From an uncultured Thermotogae bacterium (GTDB lineage Bacteria; Bipolaricaulota; Bipolaricaulia; UBA7950; UBA9294): a DNA stretch of 64,000 nt. The stretch is taken from contig CAYXLR010000001.1 in the NCBI GenBank assembly GCA_964466035.1, positions 114,130 to 178,129 on the forward strand. The letters are read 5' to 3'. The notes under the pieces were generated by a model, which worked only from the letters and a program-made list of their open reading frames with translations, was not told the DNA's origin and ran no database searches. Each line of letters starts with the position of its first letter. Within the stretch, counting starts at the first letter, position 1. The position numbers and the translations under genes were made by a program. Positions 5,282-63,424 of the stretch are shown here, in pieces.

Positions 5282-6879
5282 TCGGCCTCCCTCTTCGCTT
5301 TCGTCGCGCCGCCCATCAGCATCCCGACCCGCTCGCGATCGAGCCGATCGGGGGAGCAGACCTCCATGAATCTCCCTTCGTACATGATCCCGACCCGGTC
5401 GGCATGGGCGAGGACCTCATCGAGGTCGGCCGAGACGAGAAGGATCGCTCGACCGGCGTCGCGCATCTCGAGGAGCGTCTGGCGGATGTAGTGCGCCGCC
5501 CCGATGTCCAGACCCCGCGTCGGCTGCGAGGCGACGATGATCGCCGGGTCCTTCGCCAGCTCGCGCCCGACGATCAGCTTTTGCTGATTCCCGCCGGACA
5601 GGCTCTTCGCCGGGGCGTTCGGGCCGGTCGCTTGGATGTCGAACCGGTCCATCAGCCGCCGGACGTGCTGGGTGATCTTCCCCCGGCGCAGGATCGACAG
5701 CGGCCCGCGGAACTCCTCCCAGCGGTGGACGCCGAGGATCGCGTTCTCGGCGAGGGTGAACGGGAGGACTAGTCCGAGCTCCCAACGGTCCTCCGGGATG
5801 TGCGCGACGCCGAGGCGGTAGATCTTCCGCGGGTCGACGCCGAGGATGTTCGTCCCGTGGATCGTCGCGGTTCCGGAGACCGGAACGCGCAGGCCGGTCA
5901 GCGACTCGACGAGCTCGGACTGGCCGTTGCCTTCCACGCCGGCGATCCCGAAGATCTCGCCGCCGTAGACGTCGAACGAAACCCCGTCGACGGCGATCTC
6001 CCCGGTGTTCCCCTTCACGACGAGGTTCTCGACGTGAAGGACCCCCTCGCCGGTCCGCTCGACCTCGTCCCGAGCCCACTTGTGCGGGATCTCCTCGGTG
6101 CTGAGCTCGACCGCGTCGGCCTCCTCCTCCAGCGCCTGGCCGACCATCAGGCGGGCCAGCTGCTCGGTCGACGCCTCGGCCGTCTTCACGTCCCCGACCA
6201 TCTCCCCGCGCCGGAGGACGACGACGCGGTCGGTGACCGATCCGACCTCCTTCAGCTTGTGGGTGATCAGGATGATTGACTTTCCCTCGTCCCTCAGGCG
6301 GCGGAGAAGCGCGAACAGCTCGTCGACCTCCAGAGGCGTGAGAACGGAGGTCGGCTCGTCGAGGATCAACAGGTCGACGTCTCTTGATAAGACCTTCAGA
6401 ATCTCGACGCGCTGCTGCTCGCCGACGGCGAGCTTCTCCACCGGCACGTCGAGCGGGACGTGAAGCCCGCTCTCCTCCATCAGCGCCTCGAGCTTCCGGA
6501 GGGTCTCGGCGATTCGGATTCGGGCGAGCGGTCGGTCGTGGCTGAGCGCGACGTTCTCCGCCGCGGTGAACGTGCCGACCAGCGCGAAATGCTGATGCAC
6601 CATCCCGATCCCGAAGTCGAGCGCCTCCCGCGGACTGGCGAATCGGACGGTGCCCTTCGGCGAAACGACCCGCCCCCGCGTCGGCGGAAGAAGACCGGAG
6701 AGGATCTTGGTCAGCGTCGTCTTCCCCGCCCCGTTCTCCCCGAGCAGGCCGACGATTTCGTGCGGGCGGATCTCGAGCGTCGCCTCCTTCAGCGCGACGG
6801 TTCCGTCGGAGTAGACCTTGGTGATCCGGTCGGCCTTCAGGAAGAATCCGTTCTTGCTCGGTACGAGCTGATCCGTCAT
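5278..6879 (-). CDS. ABC transporter ATP-binding protein with duplicated ATPase cassettes (BMP/nucleoside-type)
   Basis: Cassette 1: GENGAGKTT, LAVGEQQRVEILK, LILDEPT. Cassette 2: GVEGNGQSE, LSGGNQQK. ATG 6879 (MTDQLVPSKNG) preferred over the ORF-track start 6912; the start is uncertain. Confidence 0.85.
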   Translation of the reverse strand: MTDQLVPSKNGFFLKADRITKVYSDGTVALKEATLEIRPHEIVGLLGENGAGKTTLTKILSGLLPPTRGRVVSPKGTVRFASPREALDFGIGMVHQHFALVGTFTAAENVALSHDRPLARIRIAETLRKLEALMEESGLHVPLDVPVEKLAVGEQQRVEILKVLSRDVDLLILDEPTSVLTPLEVDELFALLRRLRDEGKSIILITHKLKEVGSVTDRVVVLRRGEMVGDVKTAEASTEQLARLMVGQALEEEADAVELSTEEIPHKWARDEVERTGEGVLHVENLVVKGNTGEIAVDGVSFDVYGGEIFGIAGVEGNGQSELVESLTGLRVPVSGTATIHGTNILGVDPRKIYRLGVAHIPEDRWELGLVLPFTLAENAILGVHRWEEFRGPLSILRRGKITQHVRRLMDRFDIQATGPNAPAKSLSGGNQQKLIVGRELAKDPAIIVASQPTRGLDIGAAHYIRQTLLEMRDAGRAILLVSADLDEVLAHADRVGIMYEGRFMEVCSPDRLDRERVGMLMGGATKAKREAE

Positions 6880-12904: not shown

Positions 12905-12990
<86 letters not shown>

Positions 12991-15512: not shown

Positions 15513-17888
15513 CTACGGGCTCTCCAGGTTGGAGATCGTGGTGGTCCAGTAGACGAACCGGGTCGTCGCGGTGTAGCTGATCGCGTTGCCGATCCGGAAG
15601 TCGAGGCTCGGCGTGAGCTCGGCGCTGCTTCCGCTCGGAAGCCCGACGACGAACGGCGAGGTCGGTGGATTCACCATCGAGTATCGCAGGTACACGAAAC
15701 CGGACGACGTCTCCAGGTCTCCGTCGCCGTCGATGTCCAGCTCCAGGTGGAGCCACATGCTCTTCGAGTCGGGAATCCGGAACGTGTGATCGATGTACCC
15801 GGCCTGGAGCGAACCCTCGTAGACCAGGGTCTTTCCGCCTTCGGTCGGCGTGGGGACGATCCCCATCGGGGCGGCCTGTCCGGATCCGCTGCCGCTCGTC
15901 TGCCCGACGTTCTGGAAGGAACCGTCGGTCCGAAGCTCGATCCGGTAGTCGTGCGGCCCGGTCCAGCCGGCGCCGGCGTTGACGGTGACGTGCCAGCTGT
16001 CGGTCCCCCACACGAAGAAGCCGGGGATCGACCCCATCGGCGGCTGGCCGCCGGGCGACGCTCCGCCGCTCGACACGACGATCGGCTGCGTCACGCTGGA
16101 CGAGAGGCCGTCGTTGTCGATGACGGTCAGTCGGACGAAGACGGTACCGACCGACGGGTAGGTGACCTGGCCGAGGGAGCCGCTCATGTCGTCCGTCCCG
16201 TTCCCGTCGAGGTCCCAGAGGTACGACACGATCGTGCCGTCCGGATCGAAGGACGACTGAGCGTTCAACAGGATCGGCTGTCCGACGGTGGGCGTTAGCG
16301 GGGAGTAGGTGAACGCGGCGACCGGTGGCTGCCCGGTCGCTCCGACGACGATCGTGTGCGAGGTCGAGTCGGTAGACGCGTCGTCGTCTTGGACGGTCAG
16401 CGTCACGACGTACGTCCCCGGCGCGGCGAACTGGTGGTAGACGATGCTCCCTCCGACGGGCCCGGTCCCGTCGCCGAACGACCAGGTGTAGCTGGCGATC
16501 GTGCCGTCCGGGTCGGACGAGCCGGTCCCGTCGAACCGGACCCACTCCGCGACGCCCGGGCTCGCCGGTGAGTACGTGAACGCGGCGTTCGGCGGCAGGT
16601 TGGTCGCCCCGACCTGGATCGCCCGAGACGTCGAGTCGCTCGCCCCGTCGTTGTCGAGGACGGTCAGGGTGACCACGTACGTGCCCGGGGCGGAGAACCG
16701 GTGCCAGGCGACGACGCCGGTGCTGCTCGTCCCGTCGCCGAAGCTCCACGAGTACGAGGCGATCGTGCCGTCCGGGTCGGACGAGGCGGATCCGTCAAAC
16801 TGGACCCAGCCGTTGACCGCGGGGTTGGTCGGGGAGAACGCGAACGCGGCCGTCGGGGCCTGGTTGGTCGGCCCGATCTGGATCGTTTGAGAGATCGAGT
16901 CGGACGCCCCGTCGTTGTCGGTGACGATCAGGGTGACGGTGTAGGTCCCGGAAGACATGAAGCGCTGCCACGCGGTGCTCCCGTAGGCGGTCGATCCGTC
17001 GCCGAAGTTCCACGAGTACGACGTGACGGTGCCGTCCGGGTCGACGGACGCCGACCCGTCGAACTGGATCCACTCCCCGACGCCCGGGCTGCCCGGCGAG
17101 TAGGTGAACAGCGCCGTCGGAGGCGTGTTCACGGGGACGAGCGGCTCGAGCGTGACGTTGATCGTTCTCGTCAGGCCGCCGATGGTGAAGATCGCGGCGT
17201 TCCACCCGCTGTATCCCGGCTTGGTCACCGAGAGGCGGTGAAATCCTTGCTCGACGAACAGCGTCCGCGGCGTGTAGCCGGCGTACTGCCCGTCGAGGCT
17301 GATCAGCGCGCCGGACGGGGTCGAGTTGATCGTGACGATGCCGTAGGAGGGAGGCGTCCCGGAGACGATCTCGAAGCTCGTGAAGTCCCAGCTCCGTTCC
17401 TCGACCGGTAGGATCCCGAGGATCTGGGCCTCGATGCTCTGCTGGAAGACCTCCGGGTCCTGCGACATGTACGCGAACGGCTGAACCGGACTCGTCGTGG
17501 CGAGGATCTGGAGGTATTCGGTCCCCGTCGGAGGGGCGACGATCCACCGGCTGCTACCGGGAGGAGGGCCGAGGGTGTGTTCGCCCGCCTGGACGAAATT
17601 GTTCGGCGTTCCTGCCGAAGGATACGGGAAGAGCTGGTTCGCGATCCCGTCCGGCTGGATGTCCCAGACGTAGACGTAGGCCGGTTTGTTGACGGAGTAG
17701 TAGATGGTGATCGCTTCGCCGATGGCATAAGCGCCCTTGTCGACCCAGATTCTCACCTCGAGCTCGCTCTCCGGCGGCGTGGGGATGATCCCCTTGGGGG
17801 CCACGGGCGCCTGCGCCGCGCCGAGGACAGCGGCGAGTGCGAGGATGGACAAGAGGACGACTCCGGTCCTCCGGGTTCTCGCTTTCAT
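15513..17888 (-). CDS. Secreted multidomain surface protein: DUF4384-like + PEGA + 4 PKD domains + unknown C-terminal domain
   Basis: Signal peptide MKARTRRTGVVLLSILALAAVLGAAQA. VRIWVDKGAYAIGEAITIYYSVNKPAYVYVWDIQPDG (DUF4384-like). TINSTPSGALISLDGQYAGYTPRT (PEGA). Four repeats of FDGSxSxDPDGTIxSYxWxFGDG...GTYxVTLTVxDNDG (PKD). Confidence 0.8.
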   Translation of the reverse strand: MKARTRRTGVVLLSILALAAVLGAAQAPVAPKGIIPTPPESELEVRIWVDKGAYAIGEAITIYYSVNKPAYVYVWDIQPDGIANQLFPYPSAGTPNNFVQAGEHTLGPPPGSSRWIVAPPTGTEYLQILATTSPVQPFAYMSQDPEVFQQSIEAQILGILPVEERSWDFTSFEIVSGTPPSYGIVTINSTPSGALISLDGQYAGYTPRTLFVEQGFHRLSVTKPGYSGWNAAIFTIGGLTRTINVTLEPLVPVNTPPTALFTYSPGSPGVGEWIQFDGSASVDPDGTVTSYSWNFGDGSTAYGSTAWQRFMSSGTYTVTLIVTDNDGASDSISQTIQIGPTNQAPTAAFAFSPTNPAVNGWVQFDGSASSDPDGTIASYSWSFGDGTSSTGVVAWHRFSAPGTYVVTLTVLDNDGASDSTSRAIQVGATNLPPNAAFTYSPASPGVAEWVRFDGTGSSDPDGTIASYTWSFGDGTGPVGGSIVYHQFAAPGTYVVTLTVQDDDASTDSTSHTIVVGATGQPPVAAFTYSPLTPTVGQPILLNAQSSFDPDGTIVSYLWDLDGNGTDDMSGSLGQVTYPSVGTVFVRLTVIDNDGLSSSVTQPIVVSSGGASPGGQPPMGSIPGFFVWGTDSWHVTVNAGAGWTGPHDYRIELRTDGSFQNVGQTSGSGSGQAAPMGIVPTPTEGGKTLVYEGSLQAGYIDHTFRIPDSKSMWLHLELDIDGDGDLETSSGFVYLRYSMVNPPTSPFVVGLPSGSSAELTPSLDFRIGNAISYTATTRFVYWTTTISNLESP
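16071..17126 (-). repeat. Four tandem PKD-domain coding repeats (~260-270 nt each) inside the 15513..17888 gene
   Basis: Protein residues ~255-606 form four consecutive PKD units with recurring AAFTYSP...FDGSxSSDPDGTIASYxWSFGDG...GTYVVTLTV.DNDGASDSTS. Confidence 0.8.
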
Positions 17889-30742: not shown

Positions 30743-30750
30743 TCACACGT

Positions 30751-30932
30751 CTACTTCTCGTCGTACTCTGCATCGATGTCTGCGCCGTCTTTCGACGGCG
30801 TCTCGCCCTTTGTCGTCGCTTCGTCGGTCGGCTCCGTCCGTTTACTTCTCGTCGTACTCCGTGTCGATGTCTGCGCCGTCTTTCGACGGCGTTTCGCCCT
30901 TTGTTGTCGCTTCGCCGGTCGGCTCCGTCCGT
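30751..30932 (-). repeat. Two 91-bp tandem units in the dnaK-dnaJ spacer, each a copy of the dnaK 3' terminus plus a GNRA hairpin
   Basis: U1 30751-30841 and U2 30842-30932 differ at 7 of 91 positions. In mRNA sense each ends ...GADID(A/T)EYDEK-stop, copying the dnaK end [13 protein letters not shown] at 30933-30965. Each has CGCCGTC-GAAA-GACGGCG (30783-30800, 30874-30891). Confidence 0.9.
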
Positions 30933-32780
30933 CTACTTCTCGTCGTACTCCGCATCGATGTAGTCGCCGTCGTCCTCGTCGTCCGAGCCCGTCTCGCCGC
31001 CGCCCGGCGCGGCGCCTCCGGTGGCCTTCTGGGTCTCCTTGTACGCCTCGGCGGCGATCTCCTGCGACGCCTTGGCGAGCTCGTCGGTCTCCCTTCGGAT
31101 GTCCGCGATGGAGGCGTTCTTGTCGAGCTTCTCCCGCAGGCGTCGGACCCGATCCTCGATGTCGGATCGCTTGGCCGCGTCGACCTTCTCGCCCAAATCG
31201 GAAAGCGCCTTCTCCACCGAGTAGATCAGTTGATCGGCCTGGTTGCGGGCCTCGACCAGCTCGCTCTTCCGCTTGTCCTCCTCGGTGTGCTCCTCGGCCT
31301 CCACCCGCATCCGCTCGATCTCGGACTCGTCGAGCCTCGAGGAGTCCTGAATCGTGATCGACGAGCTCTTCGACGTCGCCTTGTCCTTCGCGGTGACGTG
31401 AAGGATCCCGTCGGCGTCGATGTTGAACGACACGTCGATCTGCGGGATCCCGCGCGGGGCCGGAGGGAGCCCGGTCAGCTGGAACTTGCCGAGCGACTTG
31501 TTGTCGGCGGCCATCTTCCGTTCTCCCTGCACGACGTGGATCTCGACCGCCGGTTGGTTGTCCTCGGCGGTGGTGAACGTCTTCGCCTTCTCGGTCGGGA
31601 TCGTCGTGTTCCGCTCGATCAGCGGCGTCGCGACGCCGCCGAGCGTCTCGATGGAGAGCGTCAACGGCGTGACGTCGAGGAGGACGATCTCGTCGACCTC
31701 GCCGGCGAGGACGCCGCCCTGGATCGCCGCGCCGGCGGCGACGACCTCGTCGGGGTTGATCTCCCGGTTCGTCTTCTCCGGGACGCGGCTGGCGATCAGC
31801 TGTTGGACCTTCGGGATCCGCGTCGACCCGCCGACGAGAACGACCTGGTCGATGTCGTCGGGGCCCTTCCCCGCCTCGCGGAGCGTCGCGTCGACGACGT
31901 TGATCGTCCGCTGGAGGTAGTCGTCGATCATCCCCTCGAACTTGGCCCGCGACAGCTTCTTCTCGAGGTGCTTCGGCCCGCTCGCGTCCGCGGTGATGTA
32001 CGGAAGGTGGATCGTCGTCTCCATCCGGGTCGACAGTTCCTTCTTCGCCGCCTCGCTGGCGTCCTTCAGTCGCTGCAGCGCGCTCGGGTCCTTTGACAGA
32101 TCGATCCCCGTGTCCTTGCGGAACTCCTCGACGAGCCAGTCGATGATCCGCTGATCGAAGTCGTCTCCCCCGAGGCGCGTGTCGCCGTCGGTGGCGAGGA
32201 CGTCGAAGACGCCGTCTCCGATCTCGAGGATCGAGACGTCGAACGTGCCGCCGCCGAGATCGTAGACGAGGATCGTCTGATCGTGCTCCTTGTCGAGGCC
32301 GTAGGCGAGGGCGGCCGCCGTCGGCTCGTTGATGATCCGCATGACCTCGAGGCCGGCAATCCTCCCCGCGTCCTTCGTCGCCTGTCGCTGCGAGTCGTTG
32401 AAGTAGGCCGGGACGGTGATCACCGCCTTGACGACCTTCCCTCCGAGGTGCGCCTCCGCGTCGCTCTTCAGCTTCTGAAGGATCATCGACGAGATCTGCT
32501 CGGGGGTGTACGTCTCCTCCTTTCCGTCGGTCGAGATGTGCACGCGATGGTCGGTTCCCATCTCGCGCTTGATCGAGGCGACGGTGTTCTTCGGGTTGGT
32601 GATCGCCTGGCGCTTGGCGAGCCGCCCGACGAGACGCTCACCGGTCTCGGTGAACGCGACGACCGACGGGGTGACGCGTTCCCCTTCCGCGTTGGTGATC
32701 ACCTCCGGCGTGCCGGCCTCGAGAACGGCGACACACGAGTTGGTCGTCCCCAAATCGATCCCAATGATCTTCTCCTTCAT
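30933..32780 (-). CDS. dnaK: Molecular chaperone DnaK (Hsp70)
   Basis: ORF track 30933..33212 trimmed to ATG 32780 (AGGAGG upstream; ATGA overlap with the grpE stop). [19 protein letters not shown]..., [12 protein letters not shown], full-length Hsp70. Confidence 0.95.
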
Positions 32781-33295
32781 GCTTTCTCCTCCTGTACGGC
32801 GGGCCCTCGGCTGACGGTGACTTTGCTGACGCGCAGGACCCGTCCGTTTCTTCGATAACCGGGTGAGAATTCCTCGATGATCGTGTTCTTCTCCTCTTCG
32901 CTCGGCGCCGCAAGCAGCGCCTCGTGAAGCGTGGGGTCGAACGGAGTCCCGACGGACGGGATCCTTTCGACGCCGCGCTGCTCGAGGATCCGTGCGAACT
33001 GGGCGAAGATCTGCTCCACGCCGGCGACGAACGCCTCCACGTTCTGGTCGTCCGCGTAGCTGCGGAACGCCCGCTCCAGGTTCTCGTAGGGCGTCAGGAA
33101 CTCGAGGAGCGCCTGATCGACGACCCGCTCTTCCAGCGTCGCGATGTCTCGCGCCGTCCGCTTCTTGTAGTTCTCGAACTCGGCCTGCAATCGCCGAAGC
33201 CGGTCGATGCACGACGAGAGCTCGGTCGCTTCCTGTTCGACCGGCGCCTCGGCCGGCTCCTCGACCCGGTCGTGGTTTTTCTTCTCTTCGCTCAT
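32777..33295 (-). CDS. grpE: Nucleotide exchange factor GrpE
   Basis: Trimmed to ATG 33295 (ATGA overlap with the hrcA stop). [15 protein letters not shown]..., [20 protein letters not shown]. Confidence 0.9.
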
Positions 33296-37067: not shown

Positions 37068-37085
37068 GAAGGATCACGCGGTCAG

Positions 37086-37504
37086 TATAGGGGCGAGCTT
37101 GATTCCCGCAAGAGATTGGGATGGGAAGACGCAACTGGAGTGCAGTTAGGGTGTTGGCTCTGTCCTGTTGCTCGGCTCTCCGAGCCTCGCAGTAGGGGCG
37201 AGCTTTCTTCACGCAAGGGACTGGAACAGGAATGCGTGTTGGGAACGTAGCACGGCGTCTTGCCTGTCCTGTTGCTTGGCTCTTCGAGCCTCGCAATAGC
37301 CACGGATTCCTGCGACTGAAAGGCTGCCATGCGGCGGGCGACACGCGACTCCGCGGAGGTAGTTCCGTCAGGCTGCTGCTTCGGCGCTACACGCCTCGCA
37401 GTAGGAGCGAATTTCATTACCACAAGGAGCTGGGACGGGAAAGCGGACGTGGGATGTGATCCGAACGCTGGTCGTGTCCTGTTGCTTGGCTCTTCGAGCC
37501 TCGC
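37086..37504. repeat. Tandem array of four ~104-nt structured units between the Wzy/TPR gene and secA
   Basis: Units at approx. 37086-37192, 37193-37296, 37297-37400 and 37401-37504. Units 1, 2 and 4 share TAGGGGCGAGCTT...TGTCCTGTTGCT(T/C)GGCTCT(T/C)CGAGCCTCGC. Unit 3 keeps only the ends. No credible ORF. Confidence 0.85.
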
Positions 37505-37520
37505 GCGGAATTCCGCCGCT

Positions 37521-49433: not shown

Positions 49434-49584
49434 GAGAACTCTTCGAGTTCTTTGGCAGAACCTCCGGTTCTGCTGCCGACATGAAAGCCGACGAACAACT
49501 CTCCGAGTTATTGAGCGGAACTTGGTTCCGCGGGCGACAACGGGCGGCTCTGCGAGCCGCTTGGCAGAACCTTCGGTTCTGCTT
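49434..49584. repeat. Direct repeats of paired tri-loop hairpins in the glnA upstream region
   Basis: GAACTC-TTC-GAGTTC (49436-49450) with GCAGAACC-TCC-GGTTCTGC (49455-49473). Repeated as GGCTC-TGC-GAGCC (49546-49558) with GCAGAACC-TTC-GGTTCTGC (49564-49582). Also AACTC-TCC-GAGTT (49497-49509). Confidence 0.75.
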
Positions 49585-49811
49585 CCGAAGATCCCACCGT
49601 GGCCGTCGAACGGCGGGCCGCGAGGGCCTTAGGTGCTTAGAATCCTCATCGTTTCGCAACCTCCCGAGAAGGCCCGGAAGGGCCGGTTTGATTGGAAGGC
49701 ATTGTAGCAAGCCGGGTGCCGCAATGCAACGGCAGGTCTTGGATTGCTTGCTATCGGACCGCAGTCGACCTAAACTGCCTCCATCCCAACAGCGTACGCA
49801 GGAGGTGAGCT

Positions 49812-51131
49812 ATGGCGGAGAGGAAGACGGCCGAGGTGCTGGCCAGGGTGAAGGAAGCGAAGGTGCAGTTTGTCCAGCTGTGGTTCACCGACCTGCTGGG
49901 CAACCTCAAGAGCCTTGAGATCCCGGCGAGCGAGCTGGAAACGGCGCTCGACGAGGGGATCGGCTTCGATGGCTCGTCGGTTCACGGCTTCGCGCGGATC
50001 GATGAGAGCGACATGCTCGTCCGCCCGGACCCGGACACGTTCGTCGTCCTGCCCTGGGAGAACGTCGGGCGGCTGATCTGTGACATCGTCCAGCCTGGCG
50101 GCGAGTCGTACAAGGGCGACCCGCGCTGGATCCTGAAGCAGGCGCTCGCCCGCGCCGCCGACCGCGAGCTGAGGATGCTCGTCGGCCCCGAGCTGGAGTA
50201 CTTCTATCTCCGATCGGATCGATCGCTCGACACGCTCGATTCGGCCGGATACTTCGACCTCTCCCCTCCGGACGTGTCGACCGAGATCCGGCGGGAGACC
50301 GTCCTCGCGATCGAGTCGATGGGCATCCCGGTCGAGGCGGCGCACCACGAGGTCGCCCCGAGCCAGCAGGAGATCGACCTGCGGCACTGCGACGCGCTGA
50401 GCATGGCCGATCGCCTGATGACCTGCCGCTACGCGATCAAGGAGGTCGCCCGGCGCCGCGGCGTGCACGCGACGTTCATGCCGAAGCCGCTCAACGCCGA
50501 GAACGGGTCGGGGATGCACACCCACATGTCGCTCGCCGGCCTCGACGGGTCGAACGCCTTCTTCGACGCCGAGGATCCGCTGCACCTGTCGGCGCTCGCC
50601 CGCGGCTACATCGCGGGGATCATGCGCCACGCCAAGGAAATCACCGGCGTCTGCGCGCAGTGGGTCAACTCGTTCAAGCGGCTCGTGCCCGGGTACGAAG
50701 CGCCGGTTTACATCACGTGGGCGCGGCGGAACCGCAGCAACATGATCCGCATTCCGATGTACAAGCCGGGCCAGGAATCGACGACGCGGATCGAGTTTCG
50801 CGTGCCGGACTCGGCCTGCAATCCGTACCTCGCGTTCGCCGTGCTCCTGCACGCCGGGCTCGAGGGGATCGAGCAGGGCTACCCGCTGCCGGACCCGGTC
50901 GAGGTCGACGTCTACCACCTGACCGACGAGGAGCGGGACGAACTCGGGATCGAGACCCTGCCCGGCAGCCTCAACGAGGCGATCGCCTGCATGCGGGAAA
51001 GCGAGCTCGTGCGACGGGCGCTCGGCGACCACATCTTCGACAAGTTCATCGAGAACAAGCAGATCGAATGGGACGCCTACCGCTCGCAGGTGCATCAATA
51101 TGAAATTGATCGATATCTACCGATCTTGTAG
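49812..51131 (+). CDS. glnA: Glutamine synthetase, type I
   Basis: AGGAGG 6 nt upstream. FTDLLGNLKSLEIP, GFDGSSVHGF, HHEVAPSQQEIDL, NGSGMHTHMSL, SACNPYLAFAVLL. 439 aa. Confidence 0.95.
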   Translation: MAERKTAEVLARVKEAKVQFVQLWFTDLLGNLKSLEIPASELETALDEGIGFDGSSVHGFARIDESDMLVRPDPDTFVVLPWENVGRLICDIVQPGGESYKGDPRWILKQALARAADRELRMLVGPELEYFYLRSDRSLDTLDSAGYFDLSPPDVSTEIRRETVLAIESMGIPVEAAHHEVAPSQQEIDLRHCDALSMADRLMTCRYAIKEVARRRGVHATFMPKPLNAENGSGMHTHMSLAGLDGSNAFFDAEDPLHLSALARGYIAGIMRHAKEITGVCAQWVNSFKRLVPGYEAPVYITWARRNRSNMIRIPMYKPGQESTTRIEFRVPDSACNPYLAFAVLLHAGLEGIEQGYPLPDPVEVDVYHLTDEERDELGIETLPGSLNEAIACMRESELVRRALGDHIFDKFIENKQIEWDAYRSQVHQYEIDRYLPIL

Positions 51132-51249
51132 CCATCGCCCAAGGTCGGCTGCTCGCCAACTCAGGGGAATGCTCCGTGAGGAGCATTCCCCAAGGGACCG
51201 GCCCGGAAGGGGACGGTCCCCGATCGATCGGTATCTACCGGTGTTGTAG
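51108..51249 (+). repeat. Direct repeat of the glnA 3' terminus flanking a hairpin-rich ~90-nt insert
   Basis: The 27-nt codon-aligned tail is copy 1 at 51105-51131 (ATT GAT CGA TAT CTA CCG ATC TTG TAG = IDRYLPIL*) and copy 2 at 51223-51249 (ATC GAT CGG TAT CTA CCG GTG TTG TAG = IDRYLPVL*). Between them: GGGGAATGCTCC-GTGA-GGAGCATTCCCC (51164-51191) and GGGACCG...CGGTCCC with a GGAA loop (51194-51220). Confidence 0.85.
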
Positions 51250-59414: not shown

Positions 59415-59844
59415 GGCCTACCTCCGAGAGCTTCTCACCGTCCTCGAAGAGGACGCGACGTTCAAGGTCGAACCGTCGTCCGATCCCGAGGGGCTCTACG
59501 TCAATCTCGAGGGGAGCCTGTTCTCGCTTCCGGAGGACCGGGCCGCCCTCACGGCGTTGGAGCTTCTCCTCCGCGGCGCGCTCCGCCGGAAGTCGGGTCA
59601 GGAAATCGAGATCGTCCTCGACGTCAACGGGGCGGTGAAGCGGCGTCGGGCGGAGCTCATCCGATTCGCGTTGACCAAGGCGGAGGACGTCCGGCGCGAC
59701 CGGAAGCGGATCCGCCTGAACCCGATGCCGGCCCACGAGCGGCGAACGATCCACGTCACGTTGGCCAACGTCCCCGGCGTGCAGACGCGGAGCATCGGCG
59801 AAGGGGACGAGCGGCGGGTGTTGATCGAGCCGGAAGACGCCTGA
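59383..59844 (+). CDS. jag: Jag/KhpB RNA-binding protein (KH + R3H domains)
   Basis: Follows yidC with a 32-nt overlap. C-terminal LNPMPAHERRTIHVTLANVPGVQTRSIGEGDERRVLI (R3H). Confidence 0.85.
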   Translation: METKALQQEVEAYLRELLTVLEEDATFKVEPSSDPEGLYVNLEGSLFSLPEDRAALTALELLLRGALRRKSGQEIEIVLDVNGAVKRRRAELIRFALTKAEDVRRDRKRIRLNPMPAHERRTIHVTLANVPGVQTRSIGEGDERRVLIEPEDA

Positions 59845-61202
59845 TGGGCGAAGGCACCATCGCCGCGGTTTCCACCCCCCTCGGCGAGGGGGGGATTGGG
59901 ATCGTCCGGCTGACCGGTCCGGACGCGATCGGCATCGTCGCCGGCCTGTTCCGTTCCGCCCAGGGCGACGCTCTGCAGGACGCGCCGAGCCACACCCTTC
60001 ACTACGGCAGGATCGTCGTCGGGGATCGCCCGATCGACGAGGCCCTCGTTTCGGTCATGCGGGCGCCGCGAACGTACACGCGGGAGGATGTCGTGGAGAT
60101 CAACTGCCACGGCGGGATCGTCGCGACGCGAGCGGTCCTCGACGCCGTCCTCGCCGCCGGGGCGCGGATGGCCGAGCGGGGCGAGTTCACCAAGCGCGCG
60201 TTCCTCAACGGCCGGATCTCGCTCGACCAGGCGAAGGCGGTCCTCGACGTGGTGCGGGCGCGGACGATCCTCGGCCTCGAGGCGGCCGTCGATCGGCTCG
60301 GCGGGCGATTCTCGGACGCGCTGGAGGAGATCCGGGGCGAACTCGCCGGAATCCTCGCCGACCTCGAGGTCGAGATCGACTACCCGGACCTCGACGTCGA
60401 CGTCGAGTCCGCCCTCCCGCGGATCGAGGCGCTCTCCCGGCGCGTCGGTCGGCTCCTCGCCCGGGGCGAGCAAGGACGGATCCTCCGCGAGGGACTGACG
60501 ATCGCGATCGTCGGTCGCCCGAACGTCGGGAAGTCGACGCTCCTGAACGCCCTCCTCGCGGAGGAGCGTGCGATCGTGACGCCGATCCCAGGGACGACCC
60601 GCGACACGGTCGAGGAGGAGGCGTCGCTGCACGGAATCCCGGTCCGCTGGATCGACACGGCCGGCCTCAGGGAGCCGGGCGATCCGGTCGAGGCGGAGGG
60701 GGTTCGGCGGACGCAGGGAGCGATCGATCGGTCCGACCTCGTCCTCTGTCTCGTCGACCGGAGCGAACCGCTCACCGAGGAGGATCGGGAGATCCTCGGC
60801 CGGGAATGGGGCGTCCCCTCGATCCTGGTCGTCAACAAGGTCGACCTGCCGGACCGCCTCGGCGAGCCGGTCGCGGGCCCGTGGTTCGAGCGTCTCGACG
60901 TCTCGGCGAAGACCGGAGACGGGATCGACGGGCTGCGGGACGCGATTCTCGAGCGGCTGGTCGGCGGGGAGCTGCCGACCCGCAACTCGGTCCTCCTTCT
61001 GGGCTCTTGGGAGCGCGACCTGATCCGGCGGGCCGGCGAAGCGCTCCGCCGGGCGGCGGAGACGGCGCGCGTCGGGCACACGCCGGACATGATCGCCGAG
61101 GAGCTGCGCACCGCCTATCGGACGGCCGGCGAGATGCAGGGGATCGACGTCGGCGAATCGATCCTCGACGCCGTCTTCTCCCGCTTCTGCGTCGGCAAGT
61201 AA
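59844..61202 (+). CDS. mnmE: tRNA modification GTPase MnmE
   Basis: IAAVSTPLGEGGIGIVRLTG, GRPNVGKSTLLNAL, DTAGLR. C-terminal FCVGK (the conserved C-[IV]-G-K end). TGATG overlap with the jag stop. Confidence 0.95.
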   Translation: MGEGTIAAVSTPLGEGGIGIVRLTGPDAIGIVAGLFRSAQGDALQDAPSHTLHYGRIVVGDRPIDEALVSVMRAPRTYTREDVVEINCHGGIVATRAVLDAVLAAGARMAERGEFTKRAFLNGRISLDQAKAVLDVVRARTILGLEAAVDRLGGRFSDALEEIRGELAGILADLEVEIDYPDLDVDVESALPRIEALSRRVGRLLARGEQGRILREGLTIAIVGRPNVGKSTLLNALLAEERAIVTPIPGTTRDTVEEEASLHGIPVRWIDTAGLREPGDPVEAEGVRRTQGAIDRSDLVLCLVDRSEPLTEEDREILGREWGVPSILVVNKVDLPDRLGEPVAGPWFERLDVSAKTGDGIDGLRDAILERLVGGELPTRNSVLLLGSWERDLIRRAGEALRRAAETARVGHTPDMIAEELRTAYRTAGEMQGIDVGESILDAVFSRFCVGK

Positions 61203-61690
61203 CCCCGGCTCTCGCTGAGCTCGCAGAGTTCGCAAAGAAAAACTCAGAGTGGAAACCCGTCGGCTTCCCCTTGGCGCCCTCTGCGTCTTTGCGAGAGGTG
61301 GGGAAACCGTCCCGGTCTCTCGCCAAGCTCGCCAAGGCGCAGAGCAGAACCCAGATCACCTGCCGCACAAATGAAAAGGGTTGAGCTTGTCTTGGCGTCC
61401 TTTGCGCCTCTGCGAGAAGTAGGGAAACCATCTCAGCCTCTCGCCAAGCTCGCCAAGGCGCAGAGCAGAACCCGGGGGTACTCACCTCGTGAATGGGGAA
61501 GCTCAAGCCTCCCTTGGCGTTTGGCGTTCTTCGCGCCTTTGCGAGAGGTAGGGAAACCGTCCCAGCCTCTCGCCAAGCTCGCCAAGGCGCAAAGCTGCCC
61601 CCGGATCGCCTGCCGTGTGAATGGGAAGTATTAAGCTTTCCTTGGCGCCCTCTGCGCCTTTGCGAGAGATGCCTTTCCTTGGTGGCTCTA
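61203..61690. repeat. Tandem array of ~4.5 structured ~120-nt units filling the mnmE/recJ convergent spacer
   Basis: Units at approx. 61203-61268 (partial), 61269-61390, 61391-61511, 61512-61640 and 61641-61690 (partial). Shared core CTTGGCG..C(T/C)TTGCGAGAGGT(A/G)GGGAAACCGTCCC.GCCTCTCGCCAAGCTCGCCAAGGCGCA(G/A)AGC. No credible ORF. Confidence 0.85.
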
Positions 61691-63424
61691 GAAGGAGGGC
61701 GATTCGGCGACGAGGTCGATCCCCTGGATCTGGACGCTTCCGCGCCAATCGTCGAAGCCGGCGTGACCGACGAGGCCGATCGGCTCGGCCCGCTCGAACG
61801 CGTCGAGGTACTTCGCCATCCGGAACGCGATGAACGGAAGCGACGCGCCGTTCTGGGTCACCTGCCCCTTGAGGTGCTGCTTCCGGTTCCCGACGAGCGT
61901 CAGATCCGAGAACGTGCAATCCGAGAGGAGGAACCGCGGCCTGGGGTTTCCCGGGCCGAACGGACCGAGGGAGATCAGGTCGGCGTGGAAGCGGGAATCG
62001 ACGTCGCCGATGGCGAGCCGCGCGTCGACCTCCTCGGCGGCGAGGTTCGTCAGCTCCTCGCGCCGCGCGGCGCCGTACGCGTACAGCCGCTCCTCCAGTC
62101 GCGGAAGGTTCTCGTTGGCGACGGAGAAGCCGGCGGCCATCCGATGCCCGCCGTACTGGAGCAGCAGGTCGCCCTGCGCCTCGAGACAGGCGCTGATGTC
62201 GAACTCGCCGACGGACCGGCACGACCCGCGGCTGACGCGATCGCCCCGGGAGACGACGACCGAGGGCACGCGGAACCGCTCGGTGAGGTACGACGCGACG
62301 AGGCCGAGGATCCCCTCGTTCCAGTACTTCCCCGTGACGAAGACGAACCCGTCCTCCTGCGGGTTCAGCGCCTCCTCGCGGATGAACTCCTCCGCCTGGG
62401 CGATCAGGTCGTTCTGCGCGATCTCCCGATCGCGGTTGTAGTCGAGGAGGATCTCGGCGAGGTACTCCGCCTGATCCGGGATCTCGGTGATCAGAAGGAG
62501 GAAGGCGACCTTCGGGTCGCCGGCGCGATTCGCCGCGTTCAGCTTCGGGGCAACGAGGTAGCCGATGTCCGAGGTGTTGATCTTCTTCGGGTTGACGGAG
62601 AGCTTCTCGAACAGGACGCGGAGGCCCTGGGACGAACCCTCTCCCCTTCCGATCAGCGAGAACGCCTCGCGGACGAAGGCGCGGTTCTCGCTCTCGCCGT
62701 CGGACGACAGCGGGACGAGATCGGCGACCGTCCCGAGCGCGACGAGGTCGAGGAACTGCGTCGGGGCGGGCTTCCCGAGGCGCTCGTAGAGGGCGCGGAC
62801 GAGCTTGTACGCGACCCCCACGCCGGCGAGCTGCCGGTTCGGGTAGGACTCCCCTTCGCGGTGGGCGTCGATGATCGCCAGCGCACTGGGAAGCGGCTCC
62901 GGGGGGAGGTGATGATCGGTGACGATCGTGTCGATCCCCGCCTCGTTGAGGGCGTCGATCTCGGCGTGGTTGGTCACGCCGCAGTCGGTCGTGATCACCA
63001 GGCCGAACTCCTCCTCGATCGCGCGGAGGACGAACGGTCGCGAGATGCCGTGTCCGCTCGTCCGGTCCCCGACGTCGACCTTCAGCGTGTTCTGCGGGAG
63101 AAGAGGTCGGAGCCCGCGGTAGAGGACGGCCGCCCCGGTCAGCCCGTCGACGTCGAAATCGCCGTGGATGAAGATCCGCTCTCCGGACTCGATCGCCGTC
63201 TTGACGCGGTCGACCGCCCGCTCCATGTCGGAGAAGAGAAACGGGGAATGGAAGCTGCGGACGCCGGGATCGATGAGGGACTCCCACGTCGTACCACCGC
63301 GCTGGGCGAGGAGGACGGCGAACGGACGGGCGCAGCTGAGCGACGAGCGGATCCCTTCGACGAGGGCTTCGTCCGGCCCGGGAGCGAGTCTCCACGCTCT
63401 CCCGGGCCGAAGGAGGGACCTCAT
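61688..63424 (-). CDS. recJ: Single-stranded-DNA-specific exonuclease RecJ
   Basis: ORF track 61688..63916 trimmed to ATG 63424 (ATGA overlap with the secF stop). IFIHGDFDVDGLTGAAVL, ITTDCG, IVTDHH, GGHRMAAGF. Confidence 0.9.
   Translation of the reverse strand: MRSLLRPGRAWRLAPGPDEALVEGIRSSLSCARPFAVLLAQRGGTTWESLIDPGVRSFHSPFLFSDMERAVDRVKTAIESGERIFIHGDFDVDGLTGAAVLYRGLRPLLPQNTLKVDVGDRTSGHGISRPFVLRAIEEEFGLVITTDCGVTNHAEIDALNEAGIDTIVTDHHLPPEPLPSALAIIDAHREGESYPNRQLAGVGVAYKLVRALYERLGKPAPTQFLDLVALGTVADLVPLSSDGESENRAFVREAFSLIGRGEGSSQGLRVLFEKLSVNPKKINTSDIGYLVAPKLNAANRAGDPKVAFLLLITEIPDQAEYLAEILLDYNRDREIAQNDLIAQAEEFIREEALNPQEDGFVFVTGKYWNEGILGLVASYLTERFRVPSVVVSRGDRVSRGSCRSVGEFDISACLEAQGDLLLQYGGHRMAAGFSVANENLPRLEERLYAYGAARREELTNLAAEEVDARLAIGDVDSRFHADLISLGPFGPGNPRPRFLLSDCTFSDLTLVGNRKQHLKGQVTQNGASLPFIAFRMAKYLDAFERAEPIGLVGHAGFDDWRGSVQIQGIDLVAESPSF

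Follow-up and report, generated by a model that had tools for sequence, protein, structure and literature searches.

The mnmE-recJ spacer and its repeat array

This report concerns a tandem array of inverted-repeat units that fills the spacer between the convergent genes mnmE and recJ in a 64-kb stretch of contig CAYXLR010000001.1 (positions 114,130 to 178,129; hereafter the window), which comes from an uncultivated Bipolaricaulota bacterium. The tRNA modification GTPase gene mnmE (59844–61202, plus strand; Pfam TrmE_N, MnmE_helical, and MMR_HSR1) ends with the residues RFCVGK and a stop codon at 61200–61202, and recJ (61688–63424, minus strand, 578 aa; Pfam DHH, DHHA1, and RecJ_OB) converges on it with a stop codon at 61688–61690. 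The spacer comprises 485 nt (61203–61687), a correction to the 488 nt given in the original prediction, which a model had made from the letters of the window. It has a GC content of 61% and is entirely filled by the array, whose onset lies 6 nt past the mnmE stop codon. An exact copy of the MnmE protein is encoded by 17 public contigs, whose origin is sediment and salt-marsh metagenomes, with JGI 3300031654 and 3300031337 among the source samples, and MnmE homologues at 67–71% identity carry the name Candidatus Bipolaricaulota in public records.

The predicted tandem organization at ~120 nt was borne out by two methods. Tandem Repeats Finder reported 61269–61668 (period 121, 3.2 copies, 72% matches, score 434) and also listed 61514–61528, in the region of unit u2. 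When a profile built from the three full units, u1 to u3, was used for an nhmmer search of the window, E values were 6e-39 to 7e-37 for these units, 1.7e-4 for a 5′ part-unit at 61641–61670, and 7.5e-3 for a 3′ half-unit at 61196–61251, with no further match anywhere in the 64 kb. Read on the plus strand, the array begins with half-unit u0 (61203–61268), in which CCCCGG is followed by a 3′-type arm A′0 (61209–61237, CTCTCGCTGAGCTCGCAGAGTTCGCAAAG) and a linker L0. Full unit u1 (61269–61389) has arm A1 at 61270–61297, a 19-nt apical linker, arm A′1 at 61317–61344, and a long linker (E = 7.7e-38); full unit u2 (61390–61518) has A2 at 61391–61418, A′2 at 61438–61465, and a long linker that closes with an additional TTGGCGT duplication (E = 6.8e-37); and full unit u3 (61519–61638) has A3 at 61520–61547, A′3 at 61567–61594, and a long linker (E = 6e-39). 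Part-unit u4 (61639–61687) consists of a 5′-type arm A4 (61641–61668) and a 19-nt tail to the recJ stop codon. A half-unit, three full units of 121, 129, and 120 nt, and a part-unit amount to ~4.0 unit-equivalents, not the ~4.5 first estimated. The local alignment score of u0 to the 3′ half of the units was reached by 0–3 of 500 shuffles, and A4 of u4 is complementary to A′0 of u0, the two forming an inverted repeat.

A 600-nt segment covering the array was 100% identical in three independent metagenome assemblies (L001, L002, and L005); the array is therefore genuine and no assembly artefact, although its copy number still deserves confirmation by long reads. Three of the six examined contigs with the exact MnmE (L003, L004, and L006) have their ends within the array, near window position 61345 or 61389, which is the behavior expected of a repeat. 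As the array fragments short-read assemblies in this way, such spacers will be under-represented in metagenome-assembled genomes (MAGs).

Architecture of the arms

The spacer contains eight mutually complementary arms of 28–29 nt that alternate in orientation, giving the layout A′ / A-A′ / A-A′ / A-A′ / A, in which the outermost A′ is supplied by the half-unit after mnmE and the outermost A by the part-unit before recJ. Between the arms lie linkers of two classes, short (19 nt) and long (32–54 nt), a full unit being made up of a 5′-type arm A, a 19-nt apical linker, a 3′-type arm A′, and a 45–54-nt linker; each arm can pair with either neighboring arm. An example of arm A is CTTGGCG CC CTCTGCG TC TTTGCGAGAG, and arm A′ is composed of CTCTCGCCAAG CTCGCCAAG G CGCAGAG. 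The direct duplication described for each unit was recovered for the 9-mer CTCGCCAAG, which occurs as the exact doublet CTCGCCAAG CTCGCCAAG in every full unit, and a 25-nt core, CTCTCGCCAAGCTCGCCAAGGCGCA, is invariant across all three of them.

At a finer scale the arms are built of near-identical heptamers, CTNNGCG or CGCNNAG, placed 8–9 nt apart, with ~25 in the spacer. Runs of CGCNNAG/CTNNGCG at 8–10-nt spacing are almost confined to this spacer, which holds 15 of the 17 adjacent pairs of the window; the other two are isolated. Within the array, 81% of columns in the hairpin part are invariant compared with 35% in the long linkers.

Folding of the units

For a unit taken alone, the predicted fold was a long and imperfect hairpin with an energy between −32 and −44 kcal/mol: −40.6 kcal/mol for u1 (z = −3.0), −44 kcal/mol for u3 (z = −4.0), and −32 kcal/mol for u2 (z = −1.5), the weakest hairpin of the full units. 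The fold of the whole spacer beat shuffled sequences on both strands (z = −4.0 to −5.6), and every A′ × A combination, within and between lineages, gave a duplex of −19 to −45 kcal/mol. Both strands folded about equally well; G·U pairs on the mnmE-sense strand were found only in the outer stem of L144, one of the related lineages described below.

The three pairings a, b, and c proposed for each unit were present as described, and the perfect heptamer partners do run in a crossing order (a b c c′ a′ a″ b′). Each 5′ heptamer has its perfect partner in the 3′ arm, with the partners in the same and not the reversed order, in L144 as well as in the window. Nothing, however, required the pseudoknot or mutually exclusive folds that had been read from this order. 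The nested long hairpin paired 96.2% of cells and the crossing model 97.5%, with 30–50% for slid controls of both, an ambiguity that arises because near-identical heptamers 8–9 nt apart pair in any register. Changes on both sides of a pair occurred at 0–1 pairs and were matched by 324–500 of 500 shuffles, a comparison that has low power with four full units. The compensatory change that had been noted between units 2 and 3 was not sustained. Its candidate column reads G, G, and A in units 1 to 3, pairs equally well with two 5′ columns because of the internal periodicity of the arms, and was matched by 324–338 of 500 shuffles; in the additional copy, from L144, the pair is broken by a C·A mismatch, an outcome that the original prediction had itself named as speaking against the change. 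With the L144 unit the RNAalifold covariation term was +0.19, that is, none.

We concluded that a special RNA fold is without support. A conserved structured noncoding RNA (ncRNA) is unlikely, since a conspecific locus 97.2% identical in mnmE is without the array. The original suggestion of a structured RNA or a protein-binding DNA repeat thus stands as far as a hairpin-forming noncoding repeat is concerned, but not for a conserved structured ncRNA.

Coding potential and known signals

The spacer had been described as free of open reading frames (ORFs). Literally it is not, as ORFs of 41–87 aa cross the array; their GC content at third codon positions (GC3) is 0.61–0.70, however, compared with 0.91–0.92 in mnmE and recJ, the unit lengths of 121, 129, and 120 nt do not maintain one reading frame, and the 87-aa ORF had 0 matches at E ≤ 0.001 among 1.84 billion protein representatives. 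For these reasons the array is noncoding, and a protein-coding repeat was ruled out.

At gathering thresholds the sole Rfam match in the window was a tRNA at 12905–12990. Within the spacer, matches at E ≤ 10 did not rise above chance: the highest-scoring, mir-2954, had 25 bits where its gathering score is 96, so the units belong to no known family at the gathering score. No sigma-70-like promoter was found at the array. The architecture did not fit an integron attC site, a CRISPR, or a retron: the spacers or cassettes of such systems are incompatible with a 121-nt period, and no reverse transcriptase, integrase, or cas gene was found among the 49 ORFs of the window.

The spacer in related lineages

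We compared the mnmE-recJ spacer in ten further lineages, taken from roughly 120 MnmE relatives, in which MnmE is 81–97% identical to that of the window. Nine of the spacers measure 15, 123, 124, 126, 136, 210, 223, 243, and 365 nt, and in L144 the contig ends 354 nt into the spacer. The element is carried by 3 of the 11 sampled lineages, namely the window, L140, and L144. The other eight have spacers of 15–365 nt without detectable homology to the units (the best pairwise local alignment was reached by 5 of 300 shuffles); homology to these array-less spacers was rejected, only short motifs like GCGCCCTCTGCG and GCGAGAAG being common to them.

In L140 (MnmE 85% and mnmE DNA 83% identical), the 126-nt spacer corresponds to u0 joined directly to u4, and forms a single long hairpin of −44 kcal/mol. 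The element is identical to that of the window at 92 of 102 positions (~90%), whereas in mnmE the third codon positions agree at only 66% (under neutrality of the element, P = 1.4e-8). This high identity may be due to purifying selection or to recent exchange. The closest sampled relatives of L140, L137 and L143, are without the element. In L144 (MnmE 86% identical), the A′ arm seen in the window begins likewise 6 nt after the stop codon. It is followed by a second A′-like arm and then by a full unit, matched by the window profile at E = 1.5e-15, where the contig stops. Of this unit, both arms and the long linker are conserved; hairpin c and the apical loop are not. The heptamers of pairing a, CTTGGCG and CGCCAAG, are kept in all four full units (three in the window and one in L144), and the crossing order recurs in L144. 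Internal units at the same locus therefore number three in the window, none in L140, and at least one in L144, as in a variable-number tandem repeat (VNTR). The element varies in copy number: at its smallest it is a single hairpin that spans the spacer, and the array of the window is the state with three internal units. This series, from the single hairpin of L140 through the variant array of L144 to the expanded array of the window, constitutes a natural experiment on array growth.

Lineage L130 is of the same species as the window by this locus (mnmE 97.2% identical, third-position differences 5.5%), yet it is without the array. Its spacer and those of L131 and L133 are packed with other perfect GC-rich hairpins (z = −4.5 to −7.0), three to four different ones per spacer (L130 6219–6428, L131 11360–11582, L133 11366–11608). 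Two hairpins of this type have the form (A/G)CGAGAAGC-loop-GCTTCTCG(T/C) and lie ~100 nt apart. The hairpins of these three lineages have a GCGAGAAG / CTTCTCGC stem motif in common with hairpin c of the window; the homology is not significant. Folding of the spacers of L136, L138, and L139 was not significant (z = −0.5 to −1.9).

Probable exchange of the spacer between lineages

When the window was aligned with L130, one breakpoint fell within ~7 nt of the mnmE stop codon, with the first mismatch located in the Gly codon, and the other ~35 nt into recJ. Identity in the flanks is 95–100%, and the sequence between the breakpoints is unrelated. Within recJ, each 100-nt block is 95–100% identical except the first after the stop codon, of which the first ~35 nt are unrelated, so that the last ~12 codons of recJ belong to the replaced segment. 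The RecJ C-terminal tail, compared in the window (61688–61725), L130, L131, L133, L136, L138, L139, and L140, takes two forms, one of 578 aa ending in DLVAESPSF and one of 574 aa ending in LDLVTS. The tail of the window is of the same type as those of L136 and L138, and that of L130 is of the same type as those of L131, L133, and L139. The distribution is mosaic and does not track MnmE similarity, which points to recombination breakpoints in the last ~35 nt of recJ. From the position of the breakpoints at the gene ends and the tail types, we concluded that the spacer behaves as an exchangeable cassette between lineages.

A proposed role and its alternatives

We propose, with a probability of about one half, that the array is a fast-evolving hairpin array in a 3′ region common to two converging genes, where it serves as a terminator, insulator, or stabilizer and has grown by unequal recombination or slippage. 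Such a function is probable by analogy with the arrays of E. coli discussed below. The basic element is a long imperfect hairpin, formed by an A′ arm, a linker, and an A arm, that spans the gap between mnmE and recJ. Transcripts entering from either gene would fold into stable stem-loops, with about −32 to −44 kcal/mol for each unit. These stem-loops could cause RNA polymerase to pause or terminate even though no U-tract is present, and could obstruct 3′→5′ exonucleases. In this way mnmE and recJ would be insulated from mutual read-through and both 3′ ends stabilized, as for E. coli repetitive extragenic palindromic (REP) sequences and bacterial interspersed mosaic elements (BIMEs) such as REP325. 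The near-identical arms would recombine unequally or slip during replication and so alter the copy number, and recombination within the conserved ends of the genes would pass the whole spacer cassette from one lineage to another.

Several results weigh against this proposal. Intrinsic terminators, sought as a hairpin followed by a T-run, numbered 0 on either strand between 60900 and 62000. The composition expected of a Rho utilization (rut) site was looked for in the spacer and ruled out by the absence of C>G skew. Hairpins after genes in the window were not enriched, with a mean of −26.8 kcal/mol compared with −25.2 kcal/mol in coding controls, so that a genome-wide habit of placing GC-rich hairpins after genes was not borne out. 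Covariation above that of shuffles was found for neither the nested nor the crossing model, so no RNA structure gains support from it. In L137 (MnmE 84% identical), the mnmE and recJ stop codons lie 15 nt apart (5360–5374), and the element or a long spacer is therefore dispensable. Divergence among the units also greatly exceeds the 5.5% that separates the window from L130 at synonymous sites. The array therefore did not arise recently in place; it may be old and constrained in its arms, or imported by recombination, or both.

An alternative that we regard as possible though doubtful is that the array is a neutral or selfish by-product, hairpin-prone DNA whose length rises and falls through slippage, unequal crossing-over, or template switching and which is tolerated, without function, in an unconstrained gap. 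The patchy distribution (3 of 11 lineages, with absence from a conspecific 97% identical in mnmE), the range of spacer lengths from 15 to 485 nt, and the lack of covariation all agree with it, as do other intergenic tandem arrays in the window with periods of 91–118 nt, which suggest a genome-wide tendency to local tandem duplication. It is opposed by the outer hairpin element, which is 90% identical to that of L140 when synonymous sites are 66% identical, by the far greater conservation of the arms and apical loop than of the long linkers, and by the three relatives without the repeat (L130, L131, and L133) whose spacers are nevertheless dense with hairpins. A more specific form of the proposed hairpin function seems unlikely to us: that this is the first REP/BIME-like system described in the candidate phylum Bipolaricaulota, in which same-order heptamer partners allow pseudoknot or register-shifting "zipper" folding and copy number tunes the insulation.

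The A′...A module might instead be a nonautonomous mobile element, similar to a REP doublet forming hairpins (REPIN) or a miniature inverted-repeat transposable element, that was moved in trans, for example by a transposase of the REP-associated tyrosine transposase (RAYT) type, inserted, and then multiplied. The arms could serve as terminal inverted repeats (CTCTCGC.../...GCGAGAG), the element occurs sporadically among relatives, its similarity between the window and L140 exceeds that of the flanking genes, and contigs break at the array. Such an origin is nonetheless improbable. A second copy was absent from the window and, in the related loci scanned, from everything outside the spacer, 0 of 49 ORFs of the window encode a transposase, integrase, or reverse transcriptase, no target-site duplication was evident, and there is no conserved GTAG or CGTC tag. 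In all three carriers, moreover, the position relative to the mnmE stop codon is identical, which vertical descent with homologous exchange fits better than transposition does. We consider quite improbable a protein-binding array at the DNA level, in which the phased heptamers would be iterated sites for a nucleoid protein, for gyrase (as in BIME-2), or for an initiator. Consistent with it are the near confinement of the heptamer runs to the spacer, the invariance of the 25-nt core even at positions unpaired in the hairpin models, and the location of mnmE in a yidC-jag-mnmE cluster of the origin-proximal type, a neighborhood that was confirmed in the window. The array is missing from close relatives, one of them of the same species, as an essential site (oriC, for example) could not be, and the heptamers are unlike the consensus sequences of DnaA boxes and parS. 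Together with a spacer that is not AT-rich (61% GC) and a coarse profile that has no GC-skew turn, the absence from conspecifics ruled out the readings as oriC, DnaA boxes, or parS. A discrete structured ncRNA, repeated about four times and using a/a′ and b/b′ as a pseudoknot or a two-fold switch, is very improbable. The crossing order of perfect heptamers is real and recurs in L144, and the loop lengths would allow an H-type pseudoknot. Against this, there is no Rfam family and no promoter or terminator consensus, a nested model does equally well, covariation is nil, the compensatory pair is broken in L144, where hairpin c and the apical loop are not conserved either, and most close relatives lack the element.

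Relation to known repeat systems

The array resembles the REP/BIME palindromic arrays of E. coli, and is in that sense real but fairly ordinary. In E. coli, REPs sit in 3′ untranslated regions (UTRs), where they lie between convergent genes, both genes tend to be more highly expressed, and REP positions vary between strains; REP325 (yjdM-yjdN), with 12 alternating palindromic Y/Z2 units in a 3′ UTR, is both a partial Rho-dependent terminator and a stabilizer of the upstream mRNA (bioRxiv 10.64898/2026.03.23.713779). Like a BIME, the array is strictly extragenic (61203–61687) and lies at gene 3′ ends; it has imperfect palindromic arms of ~30 nt in alternating orientation with alternating short and long linkers, a period of ~100–120 nt, strain-variable copy number and presence, no adjacent U-tract, and the capacity to form hairpins on either strand. 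Unlike the 355 annotated REP elements dispersed in E. coli, it is present at one locus in 64 kb, and its sequence does not resemble the Y, Z1, or Z2 units. GTAG/CGTC is found in the array only inside the apical region, where it is not invariant (u1 has GTGG and u2 CATC), and does not flank the stems as in REPs. The arms differ from those of REPs in consisting of heptamers 8–9 nt apart whose perfect partners are in a non-palindromic, crossing order, and the host is not a proteobacterium but an uncultivated Bipolaricaulota bacterium.

REP dimers are frequent between convergent genes; their spacers measure 20–100 bp, and each dimer folds as a single large stem-loop (Di Nocera et al. 2013, PMC3733652). 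The array likewise has two inverted arms separated by a 20–100-nt spacer with one large stem-loop possible, and in REPINs, too, the spacers differ between copies; REPINs and REP dimers lie mostly between convergent or unidirectional genes. REPINs, however, are defined by a high copy number and a RAYT transposase, neither of which was seen in the window, and the tag motifs are absent. The array is a tandem-repeat locus with variable copy number that is BIME-like but, by the tests for a REP that could be applied, differs in having no second copy in the 64 kb or in the related loci and no conserved tag.

Two further classes invite comparison. The mycobacterial interspersed repetitive units (MIRUs) are VNTRs of ~50–100 nt in intergenic spacers of housekeeping genes, with strain-variable copy number; they lie within operons between co-directional genes at ~40 loci and often contain small ORFs that overlap the flanking stop and start codons. 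The array is similarly intergenic at housekeeping genes, copy-number-variable, and abutting the upstream stop codon, but it lies between convergent genes, and long inverted repeats are the main feature of its units. Canonical bidirectional hairpin terminators have A- and T-tracts that flank a short stem (~8–12 bp). The L140 state, a GC-rich symmetric hairpin between converging stop codons that would be usable from both strands, is comparable to these, whereas the stem of the array is ~29 nt long, imperfect, without a T-run, and tandemly amplified.

If the proposed role is correct, a deep-branching uncultivated phylum would use expandable extragenic palindromes of the enterobacterial type, placed at gene 3′ ends to control converging transcription, that arose independently and have a different sequence. 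The array opens no long-standing question and demonstrates no new mechanism; it is a potential strain marker in salt-marsh and sediment metagenomes.

Origin of the array and other repeats and motifs

It had been suggested that the array was seeded from the tail of mnmE. Although the array begins 6 nt after the stop codon, the similarity of the last 40 nt of mnmE to the three units was at chance level, being reached by 158, 214, and 857 of 1000 shuffles, and such seeding is unsupported statistically at this locus. A proposed kinship with the array upstream of secA was likewise rejected as undetectable, the unit profile having no match there at E ≤ 10.

The element was searched for outside the window with two short probes. 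A scan of 185,579 species genomes used the 18-mer CTCGCCAAGCTCGCCAAG, a permissive pattern, as it encodes LAKLAK; there were at least 120 matches, mostly coding, and five noncoding ones among the matches listed (L024, L063, L078, L094, and L096), which have only a short (CGCCAAG)n motif in common with the array. A 23-mer core gave three matches, all at chance level, among JGI metagenome contigs, a collection without the source contigs. The intergenic motif runs in these unrelated MAGs are spaced at 9 nt (L024 2280–2370; L063 5980–6130; L078 3540–3580; L094 2030–2095 and 2780–2850; L096 160–200) and consist of (CGCCAAG)n, (CGCAAAG)n, or (CACAAAAGG)n, sometimes as inverted pairs. Two of the MAGs are labelled Opitutales and one Gammaproteobacteria. 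Intergenic runs with a 9-nt period look like a widespread sequence class.

Periods of 91–121 nt recur at several gene ends of the window. The region upstream of secA (37068–37520) contains about four copies of a ~105-nt unit, for example CTGTCCTGTTGCTTGGCTCTTCGAGCCTCGCAGTAG. The dnaK-dnaJ spacer is nearly filled by a 91-nt tandem repeat (30748–30961; 2.4 copies, 91% matches) that overlaps the last ~9 codons of dnaK (30933–33212, minus strand); here, unlike at mnmE, the gene-tail duplication looks real. The glnA gene is flanked by duplications at 49439–49588 and 51105–51249: a 41-nt segment with a GGCAGAACC...GGTTCTGC hairpin is repeated 109 nt apart upstream of the gene, and the last 27 nt of glnA, including its TAG stop codon, have a second copy 118 nt downstream at 85% identity. 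A 264-nt tandem repeat of 2.5 copies at 16465–17124 represents ordinary PKD-domain repeats in a coding gene.

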